Assembly: GCA_023132155.1 (NCBI GenBank)
Contig: JAGLYP010000026.1
Coordinates: 1,741 to 65,740, forward strand
Length of the DNA: 64,000 nucleotides
Source of the DNA: Candidatus Parcubacteria bacterium
Lineage (GTDB): Bacteria; Patescibacteriota; Patescibacteriia; Patescibacteriales; UBA12075
Direction of reading: 5' to 3'
Both the position numbers and the translations under genes were made by a program. The notes beneath the pieces are model-generated. The model saw only the letters and a list, made by a program, of their open reading frames with translations, had not been told where the DNA came from and did not search any database. Positions 17,766 to 62,931 of this stretch are shown here, one piece after another. How positions within the stretch are numbered: the stretch's first letter is position 1; the number at the start of each line of letters is the position of its first letter.

Positions 17766-17873
17766 GAGAATTAAGAATCAAGAATAAAGAATAAAGGGGA
17801 ATAAAAATTGCTTCGCAATTTAGTAGAAATAAATCTCCAATGCTTGATTCATAATTCTTTATTCTTTATTCTT
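17766..17873. repeat. heptamer array (AAGAATN x4) forming a 17-bp perfect inverted repeat with a 60-nt loop
   Basis: Left arm aagaataaagaataaag at 17780-17796 is the exact reverse complement of ctttattctttattctt at 17857-17873. The loop contains a second hairpin, AAATTGC-TTC-GCAATTT, at 17805-17821. Confidence 0.8.
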
Positions 17874-22808: not shown

Positions 22809-22819
22809 GAAATAAATAT

Positions 22820-29470: not shown

Positions 29471-29601
29471 TGTCATTGCGAGCGCTTTTAATTTGTCATT
29501 GCGAGCTCGCGAAGCAATCCCGTACCACAGAACATCGTGCGTGGATTTGTAACGGATAGCGCAAATACCGCGGGATTGCTTCGCTAGCGCTCGCAATGAC
29601 A
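29471..29601. repeat. TGTCATTGCGAGC-type long hairpin element abutting the uvrC start
   Basis: tgtcattgcgagcTCgcgaagcaatcccg (29494-29522) is complementary to cgggattgcttcgcTAGCgctcgcaatgaca (29571-29601), with a 48-nt loop. An extra partial direct copy tgtcattgcgagcgc lies at 29471-29485. Confidence 0.75.
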
Positions 29602-29608
29602 GAATAAT

Positions 29609-30937
29609 ATGGATATAAAAAAAATAAAAGTCTCGCAAAGCCCCGGTGTTTATTATTTTTTAAATAAACAAGGAAAAATAATTTATATCGGGAAAGCGGC
29701 GAATTTGAAAAGCCGCGTGTTTTCGTATTGGCGCAAAAGCGCCGGTTTGAGCGGCGCCAAACAGGAAATGATGAGGCAAATCGCGGATATTAAGTGTGTT
29801 GAAACCGATTCGGAAATAGAAGCTTTGCTTTTAGAGTCAAATTTAATAAAAAAGCATCAGCCGAAATATAATATTGATTTAAGAGATGATAAACGCTTTG
29901 TTTATATCAAAATTTCAACAGAAGATGAAATCCCCGGGGTTTTTATTACCAGAAAAATCGAAAAGCAAGGAAAGTATTTTGGTCCTTTTATATCTGTGTT
30001 TGCCGTAAAAGATGCGTTAAAAGCAATTAGAAAAATATGGCCGTATTGTACAGAGCGAAAAATTAAAAATAAGCCTTGTTTTTACGCGCAAATCGGGCGT
30101 TGTGTCGGGGTTTGCGGCGGTAATTTTGATTTAAACGAATACAAAGAAAAAATTATTAAGCCGATTGTGATGTTTTTGGGTGGGAAGAAAAATGTGATAA
30201 TTAAGAATTATGAATTAAGAATTAATAATTTAGAGAAGAAATTAATAAATAATAAAAATGATGAGAAAATTTTGGAAGAGATTACGCGATTAAAGCGGAA
30301 ATTATTGAATTTAAAGTATATATTGGCGTGCGCGAATGTTATTGGAATTTCTGAAAAGTACGCGGCTGATGTGTTTGAGTTGGCTAAAGTTTTGGGTTTG
30401 CCTAAAGTGCCTGAGCGGATAGAAGGGTATGATATATCCAATATTTTCGGGCGTGAAGCGGTTGGGTCAATGGTGGTTTTTTCCAATGGCGAACCTGATA
30501 AAAGAGGTTATCGCAAGTTTAAAATAAAAGTTGGCAGTGAAATGGGGGATACGGGGATGTTGAAGGAGGTATTGGAAAGGAGATTGAAGTATGCAGTAAA
30601 TAATGGCTTGCGCTCCGAAGCTTCAGCGAAGGAGTGGCCTAGTCCCGATTTAATTATTATTGACGGCGGAAAGGGACAGCTTAATTTGGCGGTGAGATTA
30701 TTAAAAAAAGAAAAATTGGGTATTCCTGTGATAGCCGTGTCAAAAGGCAAGGGGTTAAGGGGCGCGAACGCGCTTGATAAGATATTTTTTCCGGGAGAAA
30801 AAAAGCCGCTTGAATTACCATTGGCTTCACCTGCTTTGCATATTATAAAACGTGTTCGCGATGAAGCGCATCGTTTCGCGATTAAATATCATCGGGAGTT
30901 GAGGAGGAAAAGTTTTGTGAAAAGTGCAAGAAACTAA
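29609..30937 (+). CDS. uvrC: excinuclease ABC subunit C, short form lacking the C-terminal (HhH)2 domain
   Basis: GIY-YIG 'GVYYFLNKQGKIIYIGKAANLKSRVFSYW' and 'IKKHQPKYN'. The endonuclease region carries 'IEGYDISN', 'PDLIIIDGGKGQL' and 'RVRDEAHRFAIKYHR'. The protein ends 13 aa later at 442 aa, versus ~600 typical. Confidence 0.85.
   Translation: MDIKKIKVSQSPGVYYFLNKQGKIIYIGKAANLKSRVFSYWRKSAGLSGAKQEMMRQIADIKCVETDSEIEALLLESNLIKKHQPKYNIDLRDDKRFVYIKISTEDEIPGVFITRKIEKQGKYFGPFISVFAVKDALKAIRKIWPYCTERKIKNKPCFYAQIGRCVGVCGGNFDLNEYKEKIIKPIVMFLGGKKNVIIKNYELRINNLEKKLINNKNDEKILEEITRLKRKLLNLKYILACANVIGISEKYAADVFELAKVLGLPKVPERIEGYDISNIFGREAVGSMVVFSNGEPDKRGYRKFKIKVGSEMGDTGMLKEVLERRLKYAVNNGLRSEASAKEWPSPDLIIIDGGKGQLNLAVRLLKKEKLGIPVIAVSKGKGLRGANALDKIFFPGEKKPLELPLASPALHIIKRVRDEAHRFAIKYHRELRRKSFVKSARN
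30197..30231 (+). repeat. in-frame NNAATTA heptamer array inside uvrC
   Basis: ATAATTA AGAATTA TGAATTA AGAATTA ATAATTT encodes 'IIKNYELRINNL'. Confidence 0.8.
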
Positions 30938-35589: not shown

Positions 35590-38583
35590 ATGAAAAAACA
35601 AGAAAATAATGAGAATAAAATAAAAAAGAACCCTTTTGCGATAATGGAAGAGGATGTTTTAAAATTTTGGGAAAAGAATAAAATTTTTGAAAAATCAATT
35701 GAAAAAGAGGCGCCAAAAGGCGATTATGTTTTTTATGACGGGCCGCCGTTTATTACCGGATTGCCGCATTACGCGACGCTTCTTCCAAGTATTGCCAAAG
35801 ATATGGTGCCGCGCTATTGGACTATGAAAGGTTATAGAGTAGAGCGTGTTTGGGGCTGGGATTGCCATGGCTTGCCTGCGGAAAATAAGGTGGAAACAGA
35901 ATTGGGTTTGAAAAATAAAAAAGATATTGAAGAGCTGGGGGTTGATAAATTCGTAAACGCTTGCCGTGACTATGTTACCACCGGTTCAGAGCAATGGGAA
36001 TGGTATATTAATCGTATCGGCCGCTGGGTGGATATGAAAAACGCCTACAAAACCATGGATTTAAAATTTATGGAAAGCGTAATTTGGGCATTTAAAAAAT
36101 TGTATGACAAAGGCTTGATTTATGAGGGTTATCGTTCTTCACTGCATTGCCCTCGCTGCGCGACTCCGCTTTCAAAGTTTGAAATTACAATGGACGCGGG
36201 TTCTTATAAGGATGTTATTGATGATTCGGCTGTTGTTAAGTTTGAGATAAAAAATGTTAATAAAATATTGGCAGACTTGGAGCTTAGTTCCGAAGCTTCG
36301 GAGCTAAGCTCCGTGAATAGCAATGTTTATATTTTGGCTTGGACTACTACGCCTTGGACTTTGCCCGGAAATTTAGCTTTGGCGATTAATAAAAGTATTA
36401 AGTATCAAGTATTAAGTATTAACGATAATAATTATATTATTGCAAAAGACAGGGTTGAGGAAGTTTTTAAGGATAGAGGATATAAGATAATAAAAGAGTT
36501 TAAGGGTAAAGAATTGGTTGGGCTAGAATATGAGCCGTTGTTTGATTTGGGAAATAAAGAAATTTCTGAAAATAAGAATACATATAAAATATATCACGGA
36601 GATTTTGTTTCCACTGAGGAGGGGACGGGGGTCGTGCATATCGCGCCGAATTTCGGTGAAGATGATTTTGAATTTGGCAAAGCATATAAATTGCCAATGG
36701 TTGATTTAATGGATGAGATGGGAAATTATACTGAATTGGCGGGCGAGGAATGGAATGGATTGTATTTTAAAAAAGTTAATACAAAAGTTTTGGAAATATT
36801 GGGTGATAAATTATTTTTAAAGGAGCCCCACGAGCACTCATACCCCTTTTGTTACCGCTGTAATAGCCGTTTGATTTATAAAACTCAAAAGGCCTGGTAT
36901 TTGCGAATTTCAGAAATTAGAAATAAAATGCTTGAAAGCAATAAAGATATTAACTGGGTGCCGGAATATTTTAAAGAGGGCAGATTCAAATATAATCTGG
37001 AAAACGCGCCGGATTGGTGCTTGTCTCGTTCTCGGTATTGGGGTTCGCCGATTCCTGTTTGGCGCTGTGAGGAATGTGATGAAATTAAAGTTGCTGGTTC
37101 AGTTGAAGAAATTAAGAAATTAAGCAATGAAGAAGTTAAAGACTTACACAGGCCGGCAATTGATAAAGTTGAGTTTAAATGTGAAAAGTGCCAGGGAAAA
37201 ATGAAGCGAGTTGTTGAGGTTTTGGATTGCTGGTTTGAGTCTGGATCAATGCCTTTTGCGCAATTTCATTATCCTTTTGAACGAAAAAAAGAATGGAAAA
37301 ATATTTTTCCGGCAGATTTTATTATTGAATATACGGGCCAATTAAGAGGCTGGTTTTATTATTTGCATGTTTTGTCTAATGCCTTATTTGATTCTTTGGC
37401 ATTTAAGAATGTAATTGTATCCGGCGTACTCGCGGGAACAGATGGGCGCAAAATGAGCAAGTCATACGGCAATTATCCTGATTCAAAAAATACTTTAGAT
37501 AAATATGGGGCTGACGCTCTTAGATTGTATTTTATGTCATGTTCAATTATGGCCGGGGATGACACAACTTTAAGCGAAAAAGATATTCAGGATGCTTTGC
37601 GAAAAAATGTTATGCTTTTGTGGAATGTCACCAAATTTTATGATATGTTTTGCCATGATAAGGAAACCATAAAAGAAGATTTGGAATTTAAAAATATTTT
37701 AGATAGATGGATTGTTTTTAGGTTAGATCAGGTAGTTAAAGAAGTTACAGATAATATGGAAAAATATAGTTTACAAGGAGCGGCGCGTCCGATTACAGGG
37801 TTTATTGACGATTTGTCAACCTGGTATCTGAGGCGTTCTCGAGATCGTTTTAAAGGTGATGATAAAAATGATAAAATTCAGGCTTTAAAAACAACAAAAT
37901 ATGTTTTATTAACATTTTCCAAAGTGATCGCGCCGATTATGCCGTTTATTGCGGAACAAGTTTGGCAGAAAGTTAGCGGGAATGATTTTAAGAATGAGAA
38001 TAAATCAGTACATTTGGAGGGATGGCCTAAACAGGAATTACGAATTACACCCGTCAAGCGAATACAAGCGAATTACGAATTACGAATTTTGGAAGAAATG
38101 GAAATAGTTAGGAAAATTGTGGAATTGGCGCTTGCGAAAAGGGATGAGGCGGGAATAAGGGTGAGACAGCCGTTGAGCGAATTACGAATTACGAATTGTG
38201 AATTACGAGATGAATATATGGATTTAATTAAGAATGAATTGAATGTTAAAGATATAAAAACAGAAAAAGGCGATGGGGAATTAAATGTGAAATTAGATAT
38301 AAAATTAACACCGGAATTAAAACAGGAGGGTATGAAAAGAGAGATAGTCAGAACGGTTAACAGCATGCGCAAGAATATTGGCTTAACAATAAACGATAGG
38401 ATAGTTTTGTTCTGGCAAAGCGAAAATCAAGATATAATTCAAGCAATAAAAAAATATTCTAATGATATTCGCGGCGATGTTTTGGCTGATGAAATAAAAA
38501 ATGAAAAAAATGATGAAGTTGATATTCAGAAGGAAATAAATTTAGATTGTGGAATATTATTTTTAGGCATAAAAAATAAATAA
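35590..38583 (+). CDS. ileS: isoleucyl-tRNA synthetase
   Basis: 'FYDGPPFITGLPHYATLL' (HIGH region), 'WTTTPWTLPGN' (editing domain), 'KMSKS', and Zn-ribbon-like 'CYRC...CEEC' and 'CEKC'; 997 aa. Confidence 0.95.
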   Translation: MKKQENNENKIKKNPFAIMEEDVLKFWEKNKIFEKSIEKEAPKGDYVFYDGPPFITGLPHYATLLPSIAKDMVPRYWTMKGYRVERVWGWDCHGLPAENKVETELGLKNKKDIEELGVDKFVNACRDYVTTGSEQWEWYINRIGRWVDMKNAYKTMDLKFMESVIWAFKKLYDKGLIYEGYRSSLHCPRCATPLSKFEITMDAGSYKDVIDDSAVVKFEIKNVNKILADLELSSEASELSSVNSNVYILAWTTTPWTLPGNLALAINKSIKYQVLSINDNNYIIAKDRVEEVFKDRGYKIIKEFKGKELVGLEYEPLFDLGNKEISENKNTYKIYHGDFVSTEEGTGVVHIAPNFGEDDFEFGKAYKLPMVDLMDEMGNYTELAGEEWNGLYFKKVNTKVLEILGDKLFLKEPHEHSYPFCYRCNSRLIYKTQKAWYLRISEIRNKMLESNKDINWVPEYFKEGRFKYNLENAPDWCLSRSRYWGSPIPVWRCEECDEIKVAGSVEEIKKLSNEEVKDLHRPAIDKVEFKCEKCQGKMKRVVEVLDCWFESGSMPFAQFHYPFERKKEWKNIFPADFIIEYTGQLRGWFYYLHVLSNALFDSLAFKNVIVSGVLAGTDGRKMSKSYGNYPDSKNTLDKYGADALRLYFMSCSIMAGDDTTLSEKDIQDALRKNVMLLWNVTKFYDMFCHDKETIKEDLEFKNILDRWIVFRLDQVVKEVTDNMEKYSLQGAARPITGFIDDLSTWYLRRSRDRFKGDDKNDKIQALKTTKYVLLTFSKVIAPIMPFIAEQVWQKVSGNDFKNENKSVHLEGWPKQELRITPVKRIQANYELRILEEMEIVRKIVELALAKRDEAGIRVRQPLSELRITNCELRDEYMDLIKNELNVKDIKTEKGDGELNVKLDIKLTPELKQEGMKREIVRTVNSMRKNIGLTINDRIVLFWQSENQDIIQAIKKYSNDIRGDVLADEIKNEKNDEVDIQKEINLDCGILFLGIKNK
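36279..36312. repeat. 34-nt near-perfect palindrome in frame inside ileS
   Basis: ggagcttagttccgaag|cttcggagctaagctcc has one mismatch pair and encodes 'LELSSEASELSS' in the variable linker before WTTTPWTL. Confidence 0.8.
38034..38089 (+). repeat. in-frame heptamer (CGAATTA) array 1 inside ileS
   Basis: GGAATTA CGAATTA [3 degenerate units in phase] CGAATTA CGAATTA CGAATTT encodes 'ELRITPVKRIQANYELRIL'. Confidence 0.8.
38178..38205 (+). repeat. in-frame heptamer (CGAATTA) array 2 inside ileS
   Basis: CGAATTA CGAATTA CGAATTG TGAATTA encodes 'ELRITNCELR'. Confidence 0.8.
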
Positions 38584-39816: not shown

Positions 39817-39839
39817 CATATAAAGAATTTCAATATTAT

Positions 39840-39887
39840 TATTCGCATGTCCCGCATTTGTAGTTGCGGGTTCGCGAAGCGAATAAC
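39840..39887. repeat. REP-like hairpin element, copy 2
   Basis: TATTCGCATGTCCCGCA-TTTGTAGT-TGCGGGTTCGCGAAGCGAATAAC. The arms are identical to 21004-21069. It lies 10 nt upstream of ATG 39897. Confidence 0.8.
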
Positions 39888-39896
39888 TTAAAAACT

Positions 39897-41075
39897 ATGG
39901 CTTTTTCAAACAAGAAAAAAAATGAAGATAAAATAGATATTATTAAATTGGTAAATGATATTTTTTATCAAGGCATAGAAGAGGGGGCAAGCGATATCCA
40001 TATTCAGCCGTTTAAAGACGGGATTATAGTGCGTTATCGTATTGATGGAATTTTAAGAACGGTATTTGAAGGTGATAAAGGTTTAAGTGATTTTATGTTT
40101 TCGCGCATTAAAATTTTAGCGGATATGGAAACAACAGGATTGCCGCGCCCGCAAGAAGGAAATATTAAATTTAAATTTAATGAAAATCATGTTGATTTGC
40201 GCGTATCTATTTTTCCAACCAGCCAGGGAGAAGCGGTGGTGGTGCGTATTTTAGAAAGTAAAAAGTTTTTTAAAGAATATAATGATTTGGGGTTTAACGC
40301 TGAGCAAACAGCAGCTTTGGAAAAAATTACAAAAAAGCCATACGGATTAATTTTGGTTACAGGCCCTAATGGCAGCGGAAAATCAACAACGCTTTTTACC
40401 GTATTAAATAAGCTTAACATTCCTGAAAAAAGCTTGGTTACTTTAGAGGATCCTGTTGAAAGAAAAATAGATATGGTTAGGCAAACCAATATTAATCCGG
40501 CAATCGGATTAACTTTTGCCAAAGGATTAAAATATTTGTTAAGGCAGGATCCCGATGTTTTGATGGTGGGAGAGATTCGCGATAAAGAAACAGCGAATAT
40601 AGCCGTGCAGGCCGCCGTAACCGGACATTTGGTTTTGGCGACAATTCACACAAATAACGCGGCCGGCGCTATTGTTCGTTTAATTAATATGGGAATTGAA
40701 CCGTTTTTATTATCTTCAGCCTTAAAATTTGTTTCAGCGCAAAGATTGGCAAGAACAAATTGTCCGCATTGTAAAAAAGAATATCGCCCTTCTAAAGAAC
40801 TAATTGATATTCTTGGCGCTCCGCGAGGAATTAAATTTTATCATTCAGAAGGCTGTGATGAGTGCGGCGGCAAAGGCATGAAGGGCAGGCAAGGGATTCA
40901 TGAGGTATTGTTAATTTCCAAATCAGTTCAGGAATTGATTTTACAGCGGCCATCCGATGATCATATTAATAATTTGGCCGTAAAAGAAGGAATGGCAACA
41001 TTAAGGCAGGCCGCGCTGCAAAATGTTTATAGTGGAAATATCAGCATTGAAGAAGCGATCAGGCTCACGGAATAA
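39897..41075 (+). CDS. pilB: type II/IV secretion ATPase (GspE/PilB family), short form
   Basis: Preferred start is ATG 39897; the TTG at 39864 lies inside the hairpin element. Walker A 'GPNGSGKSTT', Asp box/Walker B 'LRQDPDVLMVGEIRD', His box 'TGHLVLATIHTN' and tetracysteine 'CPHCK...CDECGGKG'. Confidence 0.8.
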   Translation: MAFSNKKKNEDKIDIIKLVNDIFYQGIEEGASDIHIQPFKDGIIVRYRIDGILRTVFEGDKGLSDFMFSRIKILADMETTGLPRPQEGNIKFKFNENHVDLRVSIFPTSQGEAVVVRILESKKFFKEYNDLGFNAEQTAALEKITKKPYGLILVTGPNGSGKSTTLFTVLNKLNIPEKSLVTLEDPVERKIDMVRQTNINPAIGLTFAKGLKYLLRQDPDVLMVGEIRDKETANIAVQAAVTGHLVLATIHTNNAAGAIVRLINMGIEPFLLSSALKFVSAQRLARTNCPHCKKEYRPSKELIDILGAPRGIKFYHSEGCDECGGKGMKGRQGIHEVLLISKSVQELILQRPSDDHINNLAVKEGMATLRQAALQNVYSGNISIEEAIRLTE

Positions 41076-41113
41076 TGAATAATTAAAAATTAAGAATTAA
41101 TAATTAACAATTA
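41070..41113 (+). repeat. intergenic heptamer array (GAATAAT x2, then NNAATTA x5)
   Basis: AATTA recurs at exact 7-nt spacing from 41081 to 41113, starting at the pilB stop. Confidence 0.8.
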
Positions 41114-41152
41114 AAATCACATTCTCGTTCTGCTTTTAAATTTTATTTTTAA

Positions 41153-41180
41153 GTATTGTGTGGTGCGTGATGCGTGTTTA
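41153..41180 (+). repeat. GTGNTGC heptamer array upstream of lemA
   Basis: GTATTGT GTGGTGC GTGATGC GTGTTTA ends 11 nt before ATG 41191. Confidence 0.6.
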
Positions 41181-41190
41181 GAAAAAAATT

Positions 41191-41757
41191 ATGTCTACAG
41201 TGTTAATAGTTGTGCTAATAGTGATTGGCGCTTTGGCGATAATTGCTATTGGAATGTATAATAGTTTGATTCGCTTAAAGAATCGCGTAGATGAGGCTTG
41301 GAGCGATATTGACGTGCAATTAAAACGCCGTTACGATTTAATTCCAAATTTAATTGAAACGGTTAAGGGTTACGCGAGCCATGAAAAGGAAACTTTTGAA
41401 AAAGTTACCAGGGCTAGAACCGAAGCTATGTCTGCCCAAAAATCAGGAGATGCCAAGGCTCAGGCTCAAGCGGAAAATATGCTTAGCTCAACTTTAAAAT
41501 CTATTTTCGCTTTAAGCGAAAATTATCCGGATTTAAAAGCGAATACTAATTTTTTGGAATTACAGCGTGAATTAAGTGACACGGAAAACAAAATTCAAGC
41601 ATCAAGAAGATTTTATAATGGCAATGTTCGCGATTTTAATATAAAACTTGAAATTTTTCCAACTAATATTATCGGTAATATGCTTGGGTTTAAATCTCGC
41701 GATTATTTTGAAATAGCCGATGAAAGAGAACGAAGTAACGTTAAAGTGAAGTTTTAA
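41191..41757 (+). CDS. lemA: LemA family membrane protein
   Basis: N-terminal TM segment followed by 'YNSLIRLKNRVDEAWSDIDVQLKRRYDLIPNLIETVKGYASHEKETFEKV' and 'NYPDLKAN..F..LQ.EL...EN.I...R..YN', which are canonical LemA. Confidence 0.9.
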   Translation: MSTVLIVVLIVIGALAIIAIGMYNSLIRLKNRVDEAWSDIDVQLKRRYDLIPNLIETVKGYASHEKETFEKVTRARTEAMSAQKSGDAKAQAQAENMLSSTLKSIFALSENYPDLKANTNFLELQRELSDTENKIQASRRFYNGNVRDFNIKLEIFPTNIIGNMLGFKSRDYFEIADERERSNVKVKF

Positions 41758-41781
41758 GGGTTTTTAACGTGTAAGTTTTGA

Positions 41782-42717
41782 ATGAAATTTATAGATATGC
41801 CAACACTCTATAATCACTCAGACTCAAATAAACGAAAAACCTGGCTTTTGCTGTCCGGTTTTTTGATTTTTGTTATCTTAGTCGGATATATTTTTAGCGT
41901 TGCCATGGAAAGCCCTATCATCTTGTATTTTGTTGTTGGCTTTAGCATAATTTCAGCATTTGTCAGTTATTGGTGGAGTGATAAAATTGTTTTATCAATG
42001 TCTGACGCCAAGCCCGTGAAATTTGATGATAACAAAGAATTGTATAGAATAGTTGAAAATCTTTGCATTACCGCAGGACTGCCGGTGCCAAAGATATACA
42101 TTATAAACGATACCGCTCCTAATGCGTTTGCTACCGGACGCGATCCCGAGCACGCGGTTGTTGCGGTAACCGCCGGTCTTTTGCAAAAACTGGACAGAAG
42201 CGAATTGGAGGGCGTAATCGCGCATGAGCTTTCCCACATAGGGAACAGGGATATTCTGCTCGCTACCGTAGTTACGGTTTTAGTCGGCGTTGTCGTGCTT
42301 TTGGCTGATTGGTTCAGGCGCTGGACTTTTTGGGGCGGGGCAAGGAGAAGAAATAATGAAAAAGGCGGACAATTACAGCTTGTTATAATGATTATCGCGA
42401 TTATTTTATCTATTTTAGCGCCGATTTTCGTTTATATGATGCAATTTGCGATTTCCCGCAAACGAGAATTTTTGGCCGACGCTGACGGTGCTTTGCTGAC
42501 CCGCTATCCCGAAGGACTGGCGCGCGCTTTGGAAAAAATATCAGCAGATACTGAGCCTCTGGAAGTTGCTAATCGGGCAACAGCACATCTTTATATTTCT
42601 TCGCCGTTTGAGGGCAAAAGAGATAGGCGGGATAAGAAGAGTTTTTTTAAGAAGGCTTTTATGACACATCCGCCAGTTAAAGAAAGGGTTGCGGCTTTGA
42701 GGGGGATGGAGATTTAA
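41782..42717 (+). CDS. htpX: M48-family zinc metalloprotease HtpX
   Basis: TM helices, 'PNAFATGRDPEHAVVAVTAGLL' and HExxH 'AHELSHIGNRD'. A later 'EFLADADGA' is present and 'THPPVKERV' lies near the C-terminus. Confidence 0.9.
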   Translation: MKFIDMPTLYNHSDSNKRKTWLLLSGFLIFVILVGYIFSVAMESPIILYFVVGFSIISAFVSYWWSDKIVLSMSDAKPVKFDDNKELYRIVENLCITAGLPVPKIYIINDTAPNAFATGRDPEHAVVAVTAGLLQKLDRSELEGVIAHELSHIGNRDILLATVVTVLVGVVVLLADWFRRWTFWGGARRRNNEKGGQLQLVIMIIAIILSILAPIFVYMMQFAISRKREFLADADGALLTRYPEGLARALEKISADTEPLEVANRATAHLYISSPFEGKRDRRDKKSFFKKAFMTHPPVKERVAALRGMEI

Positions 42718-42755
42718 TTATCAATTTTCAATTAGGAATTAAAAATTAAAAATTA
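42714..42755 (+). repeat. intergenic heptamer array (NNAATTA x6)
   Basis: AATT(A/T) recurs at 42716, 42723, 42730, 42737, 42744 and 42751. The array begins within the htpX stop codon. Confidence 0.8.
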
Positions 42756-42777
42756 TTTAAAAGCTAATTAAAAAACC

Positions 42778-44223
42778 ATGAAAATAAAATTATCAGAAAA
42801 AAAATTAAAAGACATCAAAGCGGATTGCGAGATTGTTTTTGTTGTGAACAAAAATTTAGGACACAAATTTATTCGCGATAAAGAGATTTTAAATGAAATG
42901 AATTTTAAGGGCAAGGCTGATGAGGTTTTGTTGTTGCCGGAAAAGAAGAGAATGTATGTTGGGATTGGCGATTTAGAGCTTGAAAGTTTGCGTTGCGCGA
43001 CAGCGTTAGCGGCGCGAACTATCGTGAAAAGCAAAATCACGTCATTAAAAATCGCTTTATATTTTGCTGATGATGCTGGGAGAGGAATTAAAGCTTTAAG
43101 CGAGGGATTTTTGCTTGGCGCTTACAGCTACCAAAAATACAAATCAAAACCTACGAAAAATAACATTAAACAAATAATAATTTCCAGTGAAAATTATTAT
43201 AATAAAAAAATTGAAATAAAAAATTTAGAAGAAAAAATCAAAGAAGCCGAAATTATTTCTAAGAGCGTAAATTTTGTCCGTGATATCGTGAATGAGCCGC
43301 CGTCTGATTTGACTCCGTTAAAATTTTCTGAAATCGCAAAGGCGGAAGCGAAGGAAAACAATTTAACAATAAAAATTTTAGGCAAAAAAGAATTGGAAAA
43401 ATTGGGAATGGGAGCGTTTTTGGCGGTTAATCAGGCGAGTGCTTATCCGCCGTGGCTTATATATTTGAATTATAAACCCAAAAACGCGAAAAAGAAGATT
43501 ATATTAGTCGGCAAGGGTTTGACTTATGATACCGGCGGACTGAGTTTAAAATTGGGCGACGGCATGCTGACGATGAAAATGGATATGGGCGGAGCTGGCG
43601 CGATTTTGGGAGTAATTATGGCAATAAGCCAATTAAAATTGCCAATTGAAGTTCAGGCGATTATCGGCGCTACGGAAAACGCGATTGGCAAAGACGCGTA
43701 TAAGCCGGATGATGTTTTAAAAGCAATGAATGGAAAAACAATTGAAGTGAGGGATACTGACGCGGAAGGCAGGCTGGTTTTGGCTGATTGTTTGTGTTAC
43801 GCGCAAAAAGAAAATTTTGATTATATTATTGATATAGCCACGCTGACCGGAGCATCTATGGTTGCTTTGGGCGAATACACAAGCGCGGTTATGGGGTTTA
43901 ATCAAGACTTGAATCATAAAATATTAAAATCAGCGGAAAAATCGGGGGAGCTTGTCGGCATTTTGCCGTTTAATAAATATTTGCCTAAATTATTAAAAAG
44001 CGAAATTGCGGATATTAATAATCTTCCTTCTTCCAGATATGGCAGAGCAATTACAGCCGGACTGTTTTTAGGAGAATTTATTGAAAAAAGGAATAAGAAA
44101 AAATGGGCGCATATTGATATCGCCGGTCCGGCTTTTAAAGACAAACCTTGGGGAGTAAATCCGGTTGGCGCCAGCGGAGCCGGAACGCGCTTGTTAATTG
44201 AATGGATTAAGGGTGTTTTGTAA
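42778..44223 (+). CDS. pepA: leucyl aminopeptidase (M17)
   Basis: 'VGKGLTYDTGGLSLK', 'MKMDMGGAGA' and 'VRDTDAEGRLVLAD' (the NTDAEGRL motif). Confidence 0.9.
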   Translation: MKIKLSEKKLKDIKADCEIVFVVNKNLGHKFIRDKEILNEMNFKGKADEVLLLPEKKRMYVGIGDLELESLRCATALAARTIVKSKITSLKIALYFADDAGRGIKALSEGFLLGAYSYQKYKSKPTKNNIKQIIISSENYYNKKIEIKNLEEKIKEAEIISKSVNFVRDIVNEPPSDLTPLKFSEIAKAEAKENNLTIKILGKKELEKLGMGAFLAVNQASAYPPWLIYLNYKPKNAKKKIILVGKGLTYDTGGLSLKLGDGMLTMKMDMGGAGAILGVIMAISQLKLPIEVQAIIGATENAIGKDAYKPDDVLKAMNGKTIEVRDTDAEGRLVLADCLCYAQKENFDYIIDIATLTGASMVALGEYTSAVMGFNQDLNHKILKSAEKSGELVGILPFNKYLPKLLKSEIADINNLPSSRYGRAITAGLFLGEFIEKRNKKKWAHIDIAGPAFKDKPWGVNPVGASGAGTRLLIEWIKGVL

Positions 44224-44230
44224 ATTGGAT

Positions 44231-44276
44231 AAAAAAATTGTAGGGAACAAAAATTTTTGTTTCTTACAATTTTTTT
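44231..44276 (+). terminator. long-stem rho-independent terminator
   Basis: AAAAATTGTAGGGAACAAAA-loop-TTTTGTTTCTTACAATTTTT with two G.U pairs, followed by a T-run. Confidence 0.75.
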
Positions 44277-44334
44277 GATTTGATTTTTTTAGGGATAAGT
44301 AATATAATGAATATGTTTTATTTCTGCGAATTAA

Positions 44335-44362
44335 TAATTTTTAACTCTTAATTCTTAATTTA
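44335..44362 (-). repeat. heptamer array in inverted orientation (TAATTNN x4)
   Basis: TAA(T/C)T recurs at 44335, 44342, 44349 and 44356, which is the reverse complement of the NNAATTA units. It ends 8 nt before the secA ATG. Confidence 0.7.
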
Positions 44363-44369
44363 TATAAGT

Positions 44370-47207
44370 ATGAGTTTTTTAGATAAAATATTTGGTGATC
44401 CAAATGAAAAAGCAGTAAAAAATTTAAATCCGATTGTTGATGAGATTAATTCTCTGGAAAAAAGATTTGAAAAGATGAGCGATGATGAGTTAAAGGCAAT
44501 GACTCTTGATTTTAAGGATCGTTTGGAAAAAAGCGAGAACGCGGATGAGGCGCTTGATGAAATATTACCCGAGGCTTTCGCTGTTGTCAGGGAGGCAAGC
44601 AAGCGGATTTTAGGAATGCGCCATTTTGACGTACAATTAATCGGCGGCATAATTTTGCATCGAGGCAAGATTGCCGAGATGAAAACCGGTGAAGGTAAAA
44701 CCTTGACCGCGACTCTTCCTCTTTATTTAAACGCTTTAACCGGCAAAGGCGCGCAGTTGATTACCGTAAATGATTATTTGTCGCAAGTTGGCGCCGGTTG
44801 GATGGCAAAAGTGTATTATTCCCTCGGAGTTAGTGTCGGCGTAATTATTCATGATGCCGCGCTTGTGTATGATCCCGAATTTAGCGATGAGTCGCAATAT
44901 GATGAAAGGCTTAAGCATTTTCGTAAAATTGAGCGTAAAGAGGCTTATAATTGCGACATTGTTTATGGAACAAATAATGAATTCGGTTTTGATTATTTAA
45001 GGGATAATATGGCGCAAAATTTAAGCGATCAAGCGCAAAGAGATTTGAATTACGTTATTGTTGATGAGATTGATTCTATTTTAATTGATGAAGCGCGCAC
45101 GCCTTTGATTATCAGCGCCCCGGCGGAAGAATCAACCGACAGGTATTATAAATTCGCGCAATTAGTGGGAAGACTTAAAGAAAATGAGGATTATAATGTT
45201 GATGAAAAAATGAAAGCAGCGACTTTGACTGAGAGCGGAATAACACGTATGGAAAAGTGGCTTGGAGTGGATAATATTTATACAACCGGCGGCATTCGCG
45301 AAGTGCATCATATTGAGCAGGCGCTAAAGGCGCATACGCTTTTTAAAAAAGACAGGGATTATGTGGTACAAGAAGGCGAGGTGATAATTGTTGATGAATT
45401 TACGGGGCGCTTAATGCACGGCCGCAGGTATAGCGAGGGCTTGCATCAGGCGATTGAAGCCAAAGAAGGCGTAAAGATTCAGCGCGAATCACAGACTTTG
45501 GCGACAATTACTTTTCAAAATTATTTTCGCATGTATAAAAAATTGTCCGGTATGACCGGTACGGCCGCCACCGAAGCGGAAGAATTTTCAAAAATTTATA
45601 AATTAGATACGGTAATTATCCCAACGCATAAGCCCAATATACGCGACAATAAAAACGATTTGATTTATCGTTCTGAAGAAGGCAAATATAAAGCCGTTAT
45701 TGATGACGTAAAAAAGCGCTCAGAGCTTGGGCAGCCGATTTTGGTGGGTACGATTTCAATTCAAAAAAATGAACTTTTGTCTTCAATGATGGAGCGCAAG
45801 GGTTTGAAGCCGAATATTTTGAATGCGAAAAACCATGAAAAAGAAGCTCGTTTTATTGCCGAGGCCGGCGAGCCGGGAGCGATTACAATTGCCACTAATA
45901 TGGCGGGCAGGGGAGTTGATATTGTTCTTGGCGGCGTAGAACCTGCAAAGAATACACCTGAATATGAAGCATGGCAAAAAGAACATGAGAAAGTGATAAA
46001 AGCTGGGGGCTTGCATGTGATTGGTACGGAGCGGCATGAATCGCGCCGGATAGATAATCAATTAAGGGGGCGCGCCGGACGGCAGGGCGATGCCGGTTCC
46101 TCGCGGTTTTATGTTTCCATGGAGGATGATTTGATGAGGATATTCGGCGGGGATCGTATGAAGAATATTATGACCACTTTGAATGTTCCCGAGGATATGC
46201 CGATTGAGAACCGCTTGATTTCCCGTTCAATAGAATCGGCGCAGAAAAAAGTGGAAGGCAATAATTTTGATATCAGAAAGCATTTGGTTGAATATGATGA
46301 TGTAATTAATAAGCACAGAGAGTCAATATATGGCAAAAGAAAACGGATTTTGAAAATCGCGGAAAATAAAGAAGAAGAGATAATAAAAAATTCAGATTCA
46401 GATATTCAAAACAACAAAAAACAATATAATTCTCTTTCGGAAATTATTTTGGAAAATATAGAGGGCGAAATTGAGCAGGTAGTAAGTTTTCATACTGCCG
46501 CGGAGTATATTAAAGATTGGAATTTAGATGAAATTTCGCAGGTTGTATCAACTATTTTTCCTGTAGAAGAAAACTTAAAAGGCGATATTAGCAAATTTAT
46601 TGAAAATAATAACAAACTTGATAAAGTAAAAGCGCGTACGGCAATGATTGAACATTTGACTGCGATGGCCGAAAAGAAATATAAAGAAATGGCGGATGTG
46701 GCAAAAGAATTGAATATTGATTGGGTGAGATTGGAAAAATCGGTTTTGATTCGTTCAATTGATACGCTTTGGGTTGAGCATCTGGAGGCAATGGCAAGCG
46801 TTCGGCAAGGAATCGGCCTTAGGGGCTATGGCCAGCGCGATCCATTGGTAGAGTACAAAAAAGAGGCTTATCGCCTTTATAATGAGCTTAATAATTTAAT
46901 TAACAAGGAAACAGTTTATTCCATATATAAAGTCGGCAATGCCCAGCAAGAGGCGATTGTTCGCCAATTTAACGCGCCAAGTCTTATTGATTTGGCAAAA
47001 AATTTCAGCGCTCCGGCAAAAACGGCTGGCGGCAGCACGTCTTCTTTTTCCGGATTCGGCTCAGGTGACAATAAAAACAATGGCAGCGCAAGCGTTTTTT
47101 CCGAGCCGCAGGCAAAAGCCAGAGATGAAAGCGGAAAAAAAGTCGGCCGTAACGATCCTTGTCCGTGCGGAAGCGGGAAGAAGTATAAGAAGTGCTGCGG
47201 GGCATAA
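44370..47207 (+). CDS. secA: preprotein translocase ATPase SecA
   Basis: '[35 protein letters not shown]', DEAD-like '[21 protein letters not shown]', and a C-terminal Zn motif '[16 protein letters not shown]'. Confidence 0.97.
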
Positions 47208-47268
47208 TAAGGACATTCTGTCAATATTGCAATTTATTTAATATTAGTTTAAAATAATCATAGTTATT

Positions 47269-47301
47269 AATAATACCTAAGTTGTAGGTATTATTGTTTT
47301 T
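47269..47301 (+). terminator. rho-independent terminator after secA
   Basis: AATAATACCTA-AGTTG-TAGGTATTATT followed by GTTTTTA. Confidence 0.7.
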
Positions 47302-47325
47302 ATTAAATTATTTAATGTTTATTTT

Positions 47326-49404
47326 ATGGCTAGCTTAGCGGAAAAAATATTTAAACCATCTGCCAGAGGCAAAATCTGGCGCGTTTTTTTAGTTATTATT
47401 TTATTGGTTTTTATCGGCGGTCTTGTAGATGTTGGTAATTATTATAATAAAGGCACAGATTATATTGCTTGGAAAACCAATGGAACGATTAAGTTGCCAA
47501 AGACAAAGGAAATTCCTTTTCGTTTAGGGCTTGATCTACAAGGCGGCAGCCATCTTGTGTATGAAGCTGATATGTCGGAGATTCCAGATAGCGATAGATC
47601 CGGAGCGTTGGAGGGTGTAAGAGACGTAATTGAAAGAAGAGTTAATGTTTTCGGCGTAAGCGAACCATTAATACAAACCAGTCTTTCTGGCGGTAACTAC
47701 CGTATCATTGTGGAATTAGCCGGTATCAAGGACGTGGGTGAGGCAATCAAAATGATTGGAGAAACTCCTTTGCTTGAATTTAAAGAAGAGACCCAGGAAA
47801 TTAGAGAGCTAACCGAAGAAGAGCAAAAAACCATGGAAAAATATAATACAGAGGCGGATAAAAAAGCGGAAGATGTGTTTGGCAAGTTATTGTCAGGAGG
47901 AGATTTTGACGCTTTGGCCAAAGAATATAGCGACGATCAAAATACAAAAGAAACCGGCGGGGATTTGGGCTGGATAACGGAAAAAGAAGCGCCGCAAATT
48001 ATTGCCAAAATCAAGGATTTTGAAATTGGGCAAATAAGCGAGGATTTGGAAAAGGAAGAATTGGGTTATGATATTTTAAAATTGGAAGATAAGCGCTTGC
48101 GCGTTAATCCTTTTGATGAAAGCGAAGTGGAAAAAGAAGTTAAAGCTTCGCATCTATTGCTTTGCCACAATGAAGTTGAAAATTGCGAAAACGGTTTAAG
48201 CAAGGACGAGGCTTACGCGAAAATTAAAGAAATAAAAGCGCGAGCCACTCCTGAGAATTTTGCCGGTTTAATAAAAGAGCACTCAACCGAACCCGGAGCC
48301 GACACTCGCGCCGGAGATTTGGGCTGGTTTGCCAAGGGAGCGATGGTAAAGCCTTTTGAGGACACTGTTTTTGACCAAGAGACAGGAACAATTTCTTATG
48401 TTATTGAAACGCAGTTTGGTTATCATTTGATTTATAAACAAGCCGAAAGGGATATTTATGAGTATAAAATAAGGCGTTTGTTTATCCGTATTTTAACTGA
48501 ACGAGATATAATCGGCGATCAAAAAGAATGGAAATTAACGGAATTAACAGGAAAAAATTTAGAGCGCGCGGCGGTGCAATTTGACCCAAATGACAATAGT
48601 CCGATTGTCAGTTTGGAATTTGACAGCGAAGGCGCGGATTTGTTCGCGGACATTACCGAAAGGAATGTCGGCAAGCCCGTAGCGATATTTTTAGACGGCG
48701 AGCCGATAAGCACTCCGAATGTTAATGAAAAAATTACCGGCGGCAAAGCGGTTATATCCGGTAAATTTAATATCCAAGAAGCGAAATTATTAGCCCAAAG
48801 GCTTAACGCCGGCGCCTTGCCGGTTCCGATTGAACTTGTCGGCCAGCAGACAGTCGGAGCCAGCCTGGGCAAGATTTTTTTGGAATCAAGTTTGAAGGCC
48901 GGATTAATCGGATTAATATTGGTGGCGTTTTTTATGATTTTTTATTATCGTTTGCCTGGGATTTTCGCGGTTATATCATTGGCGATTTACGGTATATTGG
49001 TTTTGGCGATATTTAAGCTTTGGCCGGTAACATTGACCTTGTCAGGCATGGCCGGATTTATTCTTTCAATCGGCATGGCGGTTGACGCGAATGTCTTGAT
49101 TTTTGAGCGCTTAAAAGAAGAGCTTAAGTCGGGCCGACCTTTAATTTTGGCAATTGAAGATTCTTTTTTGCGCGCATGGCCGTCAATTCGCGATGGCAAT
49201 GTTTCCACTTTGGTTACTTGTCTTATTTTGATTTGGTTTTCAACCGGCGTGGTAAAAGGCTTTGCCATTACTTTGGGTCTGGGTATTTTAGTGTCAATGT
49301 TTTCGGCAATAGTGATTACCAGAAATTTATTGTGGCTTTTTAAGCCTGAGTGGCTGGAAAAAAGGATGTGGCTGATCAGTGGCGGGGTTAAAATTAAGAA
49401 TTAA
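47326..49404 (+). CDS. secD: protein translocase subunit SecD carrying an inserted tandem parvulin (PpiC-type PPIase)-like region
   Basis: SecD hallmarks are 'GLDLQGGSHLVYEAD', 'VIERRVNVFGVSEPLIQ' and 'LNAGALPVPIELVGQQTVGASLG', plus 6 C-terminal TM helices. Residues ~155-400 contain 'ASHLLL...GDLGWFAKGAMVKPFEDTVF....GTISYVIETQFGYHLIYK' and a second degenerate copy 'GGDLGWITEKE..'. Confidence 0.85.
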   Translation: MASLAEKIFKPSARGKIWRVFLVIILLVFIGGLVDVGNYYNKGTDYIAWKTNGTIKLPKTKEIPFRLGLDLQGGSHLVYEADMSEIPDSDRSGALEGVRDVIERRVNVFGVSEPLIQTSLSGGNYRIIVELAGIKDVGEAIKMIGETPLLEFKEETQEIRELTEEEQKTMEKYNTEADKKAEDVFGKLLSGGDFDALAKEYSDDQNTKETGGDLGWITEKEAPQIIAKIKDFEIGQISEDLEKEELGYDILKLEDKRLRVNPFDESEVEKEVKASHLLLCHNEVENCENGLSKDEAYAKIKEIKARATPENFAGLIKEHSTEPGADTRAGDLGWFAKGAMVKPFEDTVFDQETGTISYVIETQFGYHLIYKQAERDIYEYKIRRLFIRILTERDIIGDQKEWKLTELTGKNLERAAVQFDPNDNSPIVSLEFDSEGADLFADITERNVGKPVAIFLDGEPISTPNVNEKITGGKAVISGKFNIQEAKLLAQRLNAGALPVPIELVGQQTVGASLGKIFLESSLKAGLIGLILVAFFMIFYYRLPGIFAVISLAIYGILVLAIFKLWPVTLTLSGMAGFILSIGMAVDANVLIFERLKEELKSGRPLILAIEDSFLRAWPSIRDGNVSTLVTCLILIWFSTGVVKGFAITLGLGILVSMFSAIVITRNLLWLFKPEWLEKRMWLISGGVKIKN

Positions 49405-49424
49405 GAATTAAGAATTAATAATTC
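49390..49424 (+). repeat. heptamer array (AGAATTA x3 plus variants) spanning the secD stop
   Basis: AAAATTA AGAATTA AGAATTA AGAATTA ATAATTC. The last four secD codons and its stop ('KIKN*') lie inside the array. Confidence 0.8.
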
Positions 49425-49448
49425 AATAATTCTAATTATTTAAATTAT

Positions 49449-50384: not shown

Positions 50385-50573
50385 AGGGGATTTATGATTT
50401 GATTTATGATATATTTTTATTTAAGATTAGCTAAAAGATATCAATACTATTTGACAGTATTTTAATAGTATGTTATTGTTGAAAATTAAACAATGGCGTT
50501 TAAGTATCTTGAAAACTAAATAAAAAAACAAGAAAAGAAAAATGACTTTTTAAATTGTATAAAGGAGGATGTA

Positions 50574-54281: not shown

Positions 54282-54330
54282 AAGTAGAAAGTTATAAAGT
54301 GTAATTATTAATTGCATCGCACCATTTTTG

Positions 54331-54358
54331 TTATGTGTTGCGTGTTATGTGTTGTGTG
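54331..54358 (+). repeat. 7/14-nt periodic TTATGTG-TTGYGTG array overlapping the mreB start region
   Basis: TTATGTG TTGCGTG TTATGTG TTGTGTG. The 7-nt periodicity also extends upstream through the proS 3' end (GAAAGTT TAAAAGT AGAAAGT ...). Confidence 0.7.
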
Positions 54359-55399
54359 TTTAATAAATTATTAGGAAAATTTAGCAAAGATCTCGGCATA
54401 GATTTAGGCACGAAAAATACTCTTGTCTATACCGCTGATAAAGGCATAGTTATTAATGAGCCGTCGGTTGTGGCCGTGAATACGCGCACTGATGAAATTT
54501 TGGCTGTGGGGGACGAAGCCAAAAAAATGGTTGGGAAAACTCCAGGCCATATTCAGGCGATAAGGCCTTTGGTTGACGGTGTAATTTCCGATTTTGAAGT
54601 TACTGAAAAAATGCTTAAATATTTTATTGATAAGGTTCACGCGGAAAGTTTTACGTTAATTCCGCGTCCGCGAGTTGTTATCGGCATCCCTTTGGATATT
54701 ACCGAGGTGGAAAAAAAGGCGGTTAAAGACGCTGCAAAATCAGCAGGGGCCAGACAGGTGTATTTAATTGAGGAGTCAATGGCGGCCGCTATCGGCGCGC
54801 GTTTGCCGGTAGCCGATCCGACCGCGACTATGATAGTTGATATTGGCGGCGGAACTACGGAAATTTCGGTAATTTCTTTGGGCGGGGTTGTTTCATGGAA
54901 ATCGCTTAGACAGGCGGGAAATGAATTGGATAATAATATAATTCAATATTTTAGGGATGAGTTTAGCATATTAATCGGCGAGCAAGTAGCGGAAAATGTT
55001 AAATTGCAAATCGGTTCGGCCGCTGTTTTAAAAGAGCCGATGGAGATGGAAGCGCGCGGAAGAGATCTTATTAACGGCTTGCCTCGCGCCGTTGTTATTA
55101 ATGACAGCCAAATTAGAGAAGCTATTAGCAGAACGGTTAATCAAGTCATTGATAACATAAAAATTACCATGGAAACCACTCCGCCCGAATTGGTTTCTGA
55201 TATATATGAGCATGGCATAACTTTGGCCGGCGGCGGCGCGCTTTTAAGGGGCTTGGATAAAGAAATCGCGCAAGCTACAAAGATTCCCGTGCGAGTAGCG
55301 GATGATGCCTTGACTTGCGTTGTTAGGGGCGCGGGGATTTTATTAGAGGATCCTGAATTGCTGGAAAAAGTTTTGACTCCAAATAGCGATGAATTTTAA
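54347..55399 (+). CDS. mreB: rod shape-determining protein MreB
   Basis: 'FSKDLGIDLGTKNTLVY', 'VVAVN', 'RPLVDGVISDFE', 'MIVDIGGGTTEISVISLGG' and 'GITLAGGGALLRGLD'. The start is ambiguous: GTG 54335, ATG 54347, or GTG 54356. The last gives 'VFNKLLGKFSKDLGIDLG', which parallels E. coli 'MLKKFRGMFSNDLSIDLG'. Confidence 0.92.
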   Translation: MCCVFNKLLGKFSKDLGIDLGTKNTLVYTADKGIVINEPSVVAVNTRTDEILAVGDEAKKMVGKTPGHIQAIRPLVDGVISDFEVTEKMLKYFIDKVHAESFTLIPRPRVVIGIPLDITEVEKKAVKDAAKSAGARQVYLIEESMAAAIGARLPVADPTATMIVDIGGGTTEISVISLGGVVSWKSLRQAGNELDNNIIQYFRDEFSILIGEQVAENVKLQIGSAAVLKEPMEMEARGRDLINGLPRAVVINDSQIREAISRTVNQVIDNIKITMETTPPELVSDIYEHGITLAGGGALLRGLDKEIAQATKIPVRVADDALTCVVRGAGILLEDPELLEKVLTPNSDEF

Positions 55400-62672: not shown

Positions 62673-62679
62673 TTATAAA

Positions 62680-62826
62680 ATGTGGATTGCTCTTGGGATA
62701 AATAAAGAGCAGGGTGATAAAATAAAAGAGAAGACGGAAGATTTTTTAAAAGATAAAGGATTGGTTAAAAGAATTGAAGCAATATATGACGATATGATTG
62801 TTAATTATAAAGATGTTTTGTTTTGA
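62680..62826 (+). CDS. small ORF (48 aa), possibly the frameshifted C-terminus of the preceding gene
   Basis: The ATG at 62680 opens 'MWIALGINKEQGDKIKEKTEDF...'. This reading frame is already open from 62629, overlapping the end of 62187-62672 across an A-rich tract (AAAAATAAAAAAG). Confidence 0.3.
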   Translation: MWIALGINKEQGDKIKEKTEDFLKDKGLVKRIEAIYDDMIVNYKDVLF

Positions 62827-62876
62827 TTAAAAAATAAAAAATCATAAAAATAAAATATTAGACAATATGTTAAGCG

Positions 62877-62899
62877 GGCGTTTTTAAATGCCGTTTTTT
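62877..62899 (+). terminator. possible rho-independent terminator
   Basis: GGCGTTT-TT-AAATGCC followed by GTTTTTT. The loop is short, so the stem is probably shorter than drawn. Confidence 0.4.
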
Positions 62900-62931
62900 A
62901 TTATCTAAAATAAGCCAAAAAATAAATATTT

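Follow-up and report, generated by a model that had tools for sequence, protein, structure and literature searches.

The subject of this study is a set of tandem arrays of 7-nt units in a 64,000-nt stretch of DNA from a Candidatus Parcubacteria bacterium (assembly GCA_023132155.1, contig JAGLYP010000026.1, positions 1,741 to 65,740; the whole stretch is hereafter called the window). Most of the arrays lie at gene boundaries, and we judge it probable (about 0.6) that they are heptanucleotide microsatellites which replication slippage makes and resizes, which are kept to gene boundaries by the stop codons they contain, and which serve at most as passive spacers. We observed directly that arrays change in length by whole units, that the unit is replaced at a fixed site, that arrays occur in whichever frame is open, and that they have no preference for orientation or spacer type. 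The stop-codon argument largely covers the boundary pattern, but not all of the preference for spacer edges.

A first-pass annotation, made from the letters alone, had drawn attention to AATTA recurring at exact 7-nt spacing beside gene ends, and all six arrays that it listed (at 41070, 42714, 44335, 49390 and 17766, the last with an inverted copy) are present. The spacing is not random: an AATTA-to-AATTA distance of 7 occurred 25 times, compared with 2.7 +/- 1.8 in 200 dinucleotide shuffles, none of which gave more than 8; multiples of the spacing (14, 21 and 28 nt) were also raised, whereas other distances were not in excess. In the window Tandem Repeats Finder (TRF) called 13 non-redundant arrays with a period of 7 and three or more copies, against 1.14 per window in 50 shuffles made within 100-nt blocks, which kept the local AT content of the spacers; the observation thus survived the equal-AT shuffling that had been proposed as its check. 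Tandem arrays of periods 5, 6, 8 and 9 were at or below shuffle expectation in the window. Chance or an effect of AT-richness was ruled out by the whole-window and local-block dinucleotide shuffles, and likewise by the 78 of 80 other SecA loci, including loci with a G+C content of 0.28-0.33, that had no AATTA arrays.

The genes flanking the arrays were identified with Pfam, which confirmed T2SSE, LemA, Peptidase_M48, Peptidase_M17, SecA, SecD (with a rotamase insertion) and SecF among them. The arrays and the orthologous secD-secF junctions are compiled in Table 1.

Table 1. Period-7 arrays in the window, in the same-genome flanks and at the secD-secF junction of relatives. ORF, open reading frame; UTR, untranslated region.
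Unit	Copies	Location	Strand	Context
AATTAAN	5 perfect + 2 degenerate	41067..41115	+	from T2SSE ATPase (pilB) stop 41073-41075
AATTANN	6	42714..42757	+	from M48/HtpX-like peptidase stop 42715-42717
AATTAAG (inverted, on minus strand)	~5	44326..44362	-	in putative secA 5' UTR
AGAATTA	4-5 good + degenerate units	49388..49448	+	up to secF ATG (49449)
AAGAATN	~4	17766..17796	+	8 nt past stop of upstream gene; left arm of inverted pair
AAGAATN (inverted copy)		17839..17873	-	right hairpin arm; next ATG (17885) 11 nt further
GATTTNN	~4	50387..50414	+	3-4 nt past secF stop
TG-rich period-7 run (TATTGTG TGGTGCG TGATGCG TGTTTAG)		41155..41180	+	lemA ATG 10 nt downstream
TGTTNNG	4.6	54329..54360	+	at start of ORF 54335-55399
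TAAAAAA	3.7	62828..62855	+	within spacer 62673-62958
NNAATTA	5	30197..30234	+	inside uvrC; in sole open frame, reads IIKNYELRINNLE
AAGTATT	4.3	36393..36422	+	inside ileS
CGAATTA		38040..38088	+	length-variable ileS linker; QELRITPVKRIQANYELRILEE; part of ~50-nt segment also in giant ORF
CGAATTA	~4	38178..38208	+	inside ileS; encodes ELRITNCEL
AAATTAC	3	3834..3855	+	inside 4731-aa ORF
TAATTAA	4	same-genome flank		from hrcA stop
GATTTNN		same-genome flank		exactly from response-regulator stop to ATG of next gene (T2SSE)
AATTTCT/AGAAATT inverted pair		same-genome flank		after T2SSF stop
AAGAATT	5	secD-secF junction, window (80 nt)		
AAAATTA	4	secD-secF junction, L096 (53 nt)		PepA 88% identical to window
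degenerate remnant		secD-secF junction, L088 (49 nt)		SecD 89% identical to window
single AAGAATTAA (Lys-Asn-stop)		secD-secF junction, L089 (56 nt)		SecD 72% identical to window

Three of the four intergenic AATTA arrays of the window adjoin a stop codon and the fourth, which is inverted, adjoins a start codon, the start-codon calls being approximate. That arrays begin exactly at stop codons is largely a logical consequence of the TAA in every unit. The further claim, of an end shortly before the next start codon, is borne out by two of the four arrays: the array at 41070, which forms the 5' end of the 115-nt spacer before lemA, ends 77 nt from the next ATG, and that at 42714, which takes up most of the 60-nt htpX-pepA spacer, ends 22 nt from it. 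The secA ATG (44370) lies 9 nt past the end of the inverted array, on whose other side there is a promoter-like site (44280-44308), and the array at 49388 codes for the last four codons of secD (K I K N) and its stop (49402-49404). TRF also reported a 21-nt super-period at 41074-41114 and 49388-49438. A TG-rich family (TGNTNNG) with a 7/14-nt periodicity (TGTTATG CGATGCG ...) is found at 22776-22804, 41155-41180 and 54329-54360, where it either precedes a start codon by 10-20 nt or extends across it. Arrays are absent from most gene junctions of the window.

The window belongs to a metagenome scaffold of 769 kb, and 17.9 kb of same-genome flanks contained seven further arrays. The density in this genome is 20 arrays in 81.9 kb (about one per 4 kb), whereas 78 loci of other bacteria, 1.46 Mb in all, have 38. 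Several unrelated units (AATTAAG, GATTTNN, AAGAATA, AAGTATT and TGTTNNG; at least five cores in 82 kb) coexist in the one genome, so that the regularity lies in the period of 7 and not in one motif, AATTA being the commonest core.

The turnover of the arrays was followed in relatives. Eighty SecA loci of other species (1.46 Mb) were surveyed for AATTA arrays, and orthologous junctions were compared on contigs of SecD and PepA homologues of 72-91% identity. The SecA of the window is 68% and 62% identical to the SecAs of Candidatus Falkowbacteria metagenome-assembled genomes. AATTA-type arrays were found in only two of the 80 loci, one from the closest relative (L008) and the other from a member of the Selenomonadaceae, and in L008 a run of six TGAATTA copies begins at the TGA of secA and reaches exactly to the following gene's ATG. 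In the pooled loci period-7 arrays were nevertheless the commonest tandem class (38, versus 10 of period 8 and 5 of period 5), which agrees with the published dominance of heptanucleotides among the long simple sequence repeats (SSRs) of bacteria.

Among the closer relatives the secD-secF junction differs in unit, copy number and length (Table 1). L091, whose SecD is 86% identical to that of the window, has another heptamer at the end of secD, TAACTCA/TAACTTA, which begins in the last secD codons, and between L091 and L092, which have identical SecD proteins, there is one clean gap of 28 nt at the secD end, exactly four units. The secA 5' UTR measures 61 nt with its array in the window and 34 nt without an array in L096; in both, the pepA-secA spacer (44230-44308 in the window) keeps a 20-bp A/T-rich bidirectional terminator-like hairpin followed by a TTGATT-17-TATAAT promoter-like site. 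The comparison of array lengths that the first-pass annotation had suggested thus gave differences both at the secD end and in the secA 5' UTR, and we conclude that arrays grow, shrink and acquire other units over the time in which species diverge. The tail of SecD (…GGVKIKN) is similar to those of its homologues, which are K/N-rich, indicating that the array grew from a native Lys-Asn-stop and did not replace it.

Slippage-generated filler had been one of the possibilities named at the outset, and these changes between close relatives, above all the clean four-unit indel, are what favours it. Contingency repeats had been another, and they are not supported. Repeats of 7 bp lie upstream of hmw1A in Haemophilus influenzae (PMC8262952, PMC12721329), and contingency SSRs share with the present arrays the tandem short units near gene starts and the ability to change length by slippage. 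However, contingency SSRs are hypervariable in the population and control surface or virulence genes, whereas the window arrays did not differ between the contigs of seven samples from one population, though minor variants may be masked in consensus assemblies, and they flank housekeeping genes (secA, secD/F, htpX, pepA, hrcA), with lemA also among the neighbours. The identity across the seven samples argues that the arrays are not hypermutable switches.

In the mechanism that we propose, arrays would be seeded from A/T-rich gene-end sequence, the secD end AAG AAT TAA (Lys-Asn-stop) being in effect already one unit plus two bases, and whole-unit strand slippage during replication would create and resize them. 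Every unit has a TAA on the top strand, and its TTAATT gives one on the bottom strand as well. Since 7 and 3 have no common divisor, a run of three units supplies each frame of both strands with a stop, so that an ORF entering an array ends within 21 nt and the array seems to start at the stop codon. Given this stop content, arrays survive only between genes, or inside genes as TAC/TAT variants. The direct arrays would be unstructured A/U-rich spacers, presumably co-transcribed with the flanking genes, and their effect, if any, would be passive, namely an all-frame ribosome stop and an open leader free of a Shine-Dalgarno sequence.

Arrays within genes conform to this argument. The arrays had been described as intergenic, and most of them do lie between ORFs or at their edges, but there are copies inside uvrC (core at 30199-30231), ileS (among them units at 38069-38088) and the giant 4731-aa ORF. 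All in-ORF arrays have a unit variant without an in-frame stop, TAC or TAT replacing TAA. The peptides encoded at the ileS arrays include QANYELRILEE and SELRITNCEL, and the ELRITNCEL of the array at 38178..38208 matches a conserved motif of the homologues, LRI(T/K)NYEL; this array (at 38180) may be old, or may coincide with an AT-rich codon choice. The 4731-aa ORF (3836-3886) and ileS (38030-38085) have in common a segment of about 50 nt, GAATTAC(A/G)AATTACACCYGTCAAGCGARTACAAGCRAATTACGAAT, with about 92% identity between the copies, which are translated in different frames (KITNYKLHLSSEYKQITN versus QELRITPVKRIQANYELRI), and no such segment is expected by chance. On sequence grounds we take the segment to be the result of DNA-level copying between two unrelated genes. 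A protein-level origin of the in-ORF arrays was rejected, because the reading of the segment in different frames places the similarity at the DNA level. The occurrence of arrays in whichever frame is open, together with the segment shared across frames, indicates that the generating process acts on DNA and is blind to coding. A dispersed element tagged by ACCYGTCAAGCGA was also considered and rejected, this tag being present only at two sites in the window and in no other fetched locus. The 4731-aa ORF itself (1760-15955) gave faint fibronectin-III-like matches and follows pilin-like (N_methyl) genes; the gene after it encodes a 599-aa Fn3 / purple-acid-phosphatase-N protein. Its product is likely a giant surface protein.

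Placement relative to gene boundaries was examined more widely with an exact scan of metagenomes for four AATTA cores at 7-nt spacing. Matches came from at least 120 contigs, with a G+C content of 0.19-0.67, and 80 of these contigs yielded 109 arrays, 100 of them outside long ORFs (92% intergenic). Orientation relative to the flanking genes was even (83 same, 81 opposite), and co-directional, divergent and convergent spacers held 47, 10 and 9 arrays, similar to the background of 252, 40 and 47 such spacers in the same contigs. Arrays lay close to gene ends and showed no preference for one type of spacer. The even orientation and background-like spacer types argue against an RNA-strand-specific, promoter-specific or terminator-specific role. 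The contigs L100, L120 and L138 each had a dominant unit of their own. On L100 (G+C content 0.65) four AATTACG arrays lie within 3.3 kb inside long ORFs, beside CGGCGGT and TTCGTAT heptamer runs; A/T-rich heptamer arrays thus occur in high-GC organisms too.

Several findings weigh against an origin by slippage with confinement by stop codons. First, the mismatches between units show a modest concentration in two phases, with five positions conserved and two free (33 of 38 mismatches versus 28.3 +/- 1.5, P = 0.004), which simple slippage does not predict. Second, the AATTA core is common to 9 of the 20 arrays of this genome, by a rough estimate more than random seeding would give. Third, 23 of 65 stop-facing flanks in the census had a gap of at most 3 nt, the stop lying inside the array in 15, and the relative position within the spacer was bimodal (quintiles 24, 5, 3, 5, 20; Kolmogorov-Smirnov P = 0.002 against uniform); stop content accounts for the 15 cases but not for all of the remaining edge preference. 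Only stop-side distances were used here, since array stops define the possible ORF starts and thereby bias the start-side ones. Fourth, where two arrays share a spacer they form an inverted pair in 8 of 10 cases, as do 17766/17873 in the window, and such neighbouring arrays enclose 30-60 nt. Fifth, the GATTTNN array after secF has been kept in three species (the window, L088 with 5.9 copies, and L096), albeit with different copy numbers. Finally, there is no explanation why 7 nt should be prone to slippage rather than 5 or 8, the footprint of the polymerase being a published conjecture.

The arrays were also examined for structure and signals. The direct arrays have folding energies of -5 to -9 kcal/mol, which shuffled sequences equal (z between -1.1 and +1.5; -1.1 for 41067..41115, +0.45 for 42714..42757 and +1.5 for 44326..44362). 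The only array to form a hairpin is the inverted pair 17766-17796/17839-17873 (-25.7 kcal/mol, z -2.2), which has no U-tract. No terminator-like site was found in or beside the three arrays that begin at stop codons, and intrinsic terminators and palindromes of the repetitive extragenic type were rejected as an identity for the arrays, because the direct arrays are unstructured and no terminator-like site overlaps them. Promoter-like matches inside arrays reached at most 9/12, the background level, and the total for the region (60 versus 41 +/- 7 in shuffles) is not driven by the arrays. Neither a terminator nor a promoter was found between pilB and lemA, htpX and pepA, or secD and secF. Nor do the arrays match curved DNA with phased A-tracts, in which runs recur every 10-11 bp: the annotation had argued that a 7-bp period is out of helical phase, and the spacing is exactly 7 bp, although every third unit does return to phase, three units (21 bp) making two helical turns. 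A Shine-Dalgarno sequence of the AAGGAGG type precedes only 4 of about 44 genes in the window (21792, 50574, 51133 and 51704). As some 40 of the 44 lack one, A/U-rich leaders without it are the norm here and not special to array-bearing genes.

An alternative that we regard as unlikely, but that deserves to be weighed, is that the arrays are cis-acting binding sites for a protein that reads nucleic acids at intervals of 7 nt and sets the translation or transcription of the adjacent gene. HutP binds UAG triplets spaced 7 nt apart, and the reader could be, on RNA, an OB-fold protein (S1, cold-shock) or a ring of the HutP/TRAP type and, on duplex DNA, a ribbon-helix-helix protein like omega/ParB. 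In favour of such a reader are the restriction of variation mainly to two phases, which leaves a 5-nt core, and the dominance of one core per genome, AATTA here and other units in L100, L120 and L138. The arrays lie beside start codons without a Shine-Dalgarno sequence, an argument also made for TAACTGA repeats (PMC4679880), and their usual 4-6 units are in line with the omega/ParB protein of pSM19035, which binds contiguous 7-bp heptads, direct or inverted, and needs at least four of them (PMC9499535). The omega/ParB heptads (parS) and the present arrays have in common contiguous 7-bp units (4-10 per array there, 4-6 here), both orientations and a conserved core beside variable bases. The omega/ParB consensus is WATCACW, which differs from the units here, and those heptads sit at a few plasmid promoters with a dedicated ribbon-helix-helix protein, whereas here there are dozens of chromosomal gene-end sites with variable units that are not promoter-specific. 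Against binding sites in general stand the different cores, or missing arrays, at one orthologous junction in close relatives, the five or more unrelated cores within 82 kb, the absence of orientation bias and spacer-type preference in the census, the copies inside ORFs, and flanking genes that have no common functional theme. No candidate binding protein has been identified, though no partner protein was sought.

Selection could instead have acted on the arrays as punctuation for polycistronic translation, the all-frame stops serving as a backstop and the unstructured A/U-rich track allowing terminating ribosomes to re-initiate at the next start, which lacks a Shine-Dalgarno sequence; we consider this quite unlikely. 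It would account for the arrays that span a stop and the next ATG exactly, as in L008 after the secA TGA, in the flank between the response regulator and T2SSE (GATTTNN), and between secD and secF in the window, and some units even give an ATGA stop/start overlap. All-frame stops by construction, the lack of structure, the scarcity of Shine-Dalgarno sequences, the junctions with neither separating terminator nor promoter (pilB-lemA, htpX-pepA, secD-secF), and the retention of the array after secF in three species are likewise compatible with it. However, arrays are equally present between convergent or divergent genes, which cannot be coupled, and occur in both orientations; most junctions in the window do without them, as do close relatives at the same junctions; and periods of 4, 5 and 8 would also place stops in three frames, yet only 7 is enriched.

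The broader form of this idea, that the arrays are widespread selected gene-boundary punctuation, with a 5-nt core in every 7 nt that is recognised by the ribosome itself or by a protein stepping in heptads, seems improbable to us. If it were true, the arrays would tell where cistrons end and begin when a genome is largely devoid of Shine-Dalgarno sequences, each lineage co-evolving its own core, and this would explain both their closeness to stops and starts at G+C contents of 0.19-0.67 and the confinement of variation to two phases.

Highly improbable, finally, is an origin as footprints or parts of a small mobile or recombining element (target-site duplications, inverted ends like those of miniature inverted-repeat transposable elements, or template-switch copies): the CGAATTA-bearing segment of about 50 nt shared between the giant ORF and ileS, the usual pairing of neighbouring arrays as inverted copies around a 30-60-nt spacer and the 7-nt target duplications of some transposons (PMC4679880) could suggest it, but the arrays come with no transposase or conserved flank, none of the other fetched loci has the shared motif, relatives differ in the number of units and not in the presence or absence of a defined element, and a target duplication has two copies where the arrays have 4-23.

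The preferred reading, slippage-made microsatellites, places the arrays in a class that has been described. According to PMC4679880 and PMC4692102, Mrazek, Guo and Shah (2007) found heptanucleotides to be the most abundant class of long SSR in most prokaryotic genomes and proposed slippage as their source; both papers relay the polymerase footprint as a conjecture for the 7-nt unit. Tandem iteration of a 5-11-nt unit above composition expectation, copy change by whole units between relatives and a mainly non-coding location characterise that class, and the arrays show all of them: 13 versus 1.14 and 25 versus 2.7 in the shuffles; the 28 nt of L091/L092, the secD-secF junction and the secA 5' UTR; and 100 of 109 in the metagenome contigs and most of those in the window and flanks. 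As the survey is summarised in those papers, its repeats resemble the present arrays in their head-to-tail 7-nt unit, mostly intergenic location, phylogenetic scatter and variable unit number. It predates the genomes of the candidate phyla radiation (CPR)/Patescibacteria, and neither a unit of the AATTAAG type nor a density of about one array per 4 kb is mentioned in these summaries of it. When the literature was searched for the exact units, and for tandem repeats in Patescibacteria, no account of arrays like these came up. The first-pass annotation had known of no described function for arrays of this kind; the class as such turns out to have been described, though it is little understood.

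Within this class, to which we assign the arrays, the closest precedent is the TAACTGA repeat of the Beggiatoaceae. Direct repeats of TAACTGA are found in marine Beggiatoaceae and in some Cyanobacteria and Bacteroidetes (MacGregor 2015, PMC4679880), and the same argument from stops in all frames was made for them there, where a role as translational regulator was also proposed. Like the present arrays, they come in 2-6 copies and lie almost all in intergenic positions at gene boundaries; some overlap the end of the upstream ORF, but to a limited extent only, since every frame meets a stop in such repeats. Few ribosome-binding sites lie beside them, copies in ORFs occasional, RNA structure is not predicted, and one genome-specific unit dominates. 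The TAACTCA/TAACTTA of the relative L091 is one base off TAACTGA. The window, however, does not contain the TAACTGA unit itself but has NNAATTA, GATTTNN and AAGAATA, several families coexisting, and the BOGUAY repeats are strongly oriented to the downstream start codon (132 of 170), whereas the arrays here mainly start at stops and show no orientation bias in the census.

The short tandemly repeated repetitive (STRR) sequences of heterocystous cyanobacteria and the GGGAATC / GGGGA(T/C)T repeats of Xanthomonas and Nostoc are also intergenic heptamers, some of them in inverted pairs, which vary in length and sequence at the same gene pair between close relatives and have no known function (PMC4692102). 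Their units are G-rich and some form G-quadruplexes, whereas the units here are A/T-rich, stop-bearing and unable to form quadruplexes. Membership of the cyanobacterial STRR family was rejected, as its defined units CCCCAGT, TTGGTCA and CAACAGT differ from those here and the organism is a Falkowbacteria-like CPR bacterium.

Some further features of the window were recorded. All genes but one are on the plus strand, and the GC skew is positive throughout. Rfam gave no match at gathering score anywhere in the window, and no tRNA or tmRNA was found in it. A conserved hairpin-like motif (ATTCGCATGTCCCGCA ... TGCGGGTTCGCGAAGCGAATAAC) at 21005-21071 and 39838-39896, with differing loop lengths and no Rfam match, lies directly upstream of two unrelated genes, a 235-aa ORF (21072) and the T2SSE ATPase gene. 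A gene-free region of 785 nt (22035-22819) includes a sub-threshold match to a T-box leader at 22143-22345 (36 bits versus a gathering score of 93, E = 3e-6) with a 15-nt tandem repeat at 22268-22306, the rest of the region being G+C-rich and palindromic without a match. Between a small ferredoxin-like ORF and uvrC there is a long palindromic element (29480-29608; TTGTCATTGCGAGC...GCTCGCAATGACA), with a half copy just upstream. SecD (47326-49404) has two PPIC-type rotamase (peptidyl-prolyl isomerase) domains inserted in its periplasmic region, an architecture common to all of its best 120 homologues, which indicates a clade-wide fusion.

Heptanucleotides are the commonest long microsatellites of bacteria. 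For annotation, the repeats matter in that they shape the ends of ORFs and some protein tails and linkers, such as the SecD C-terminus and the IleRS linker. With an array every 4 kb or so, a genome size of roughly 0.8 Mb and a graded series of relatives at hand, this bacterium offers an unusually dense example and a convenient natural system for the study of array turnover, which suits tests both of confinement by stop codons and of a spacer role as opposed to a binding-site role where translation starts without a Shine-Dalgarno sequence.

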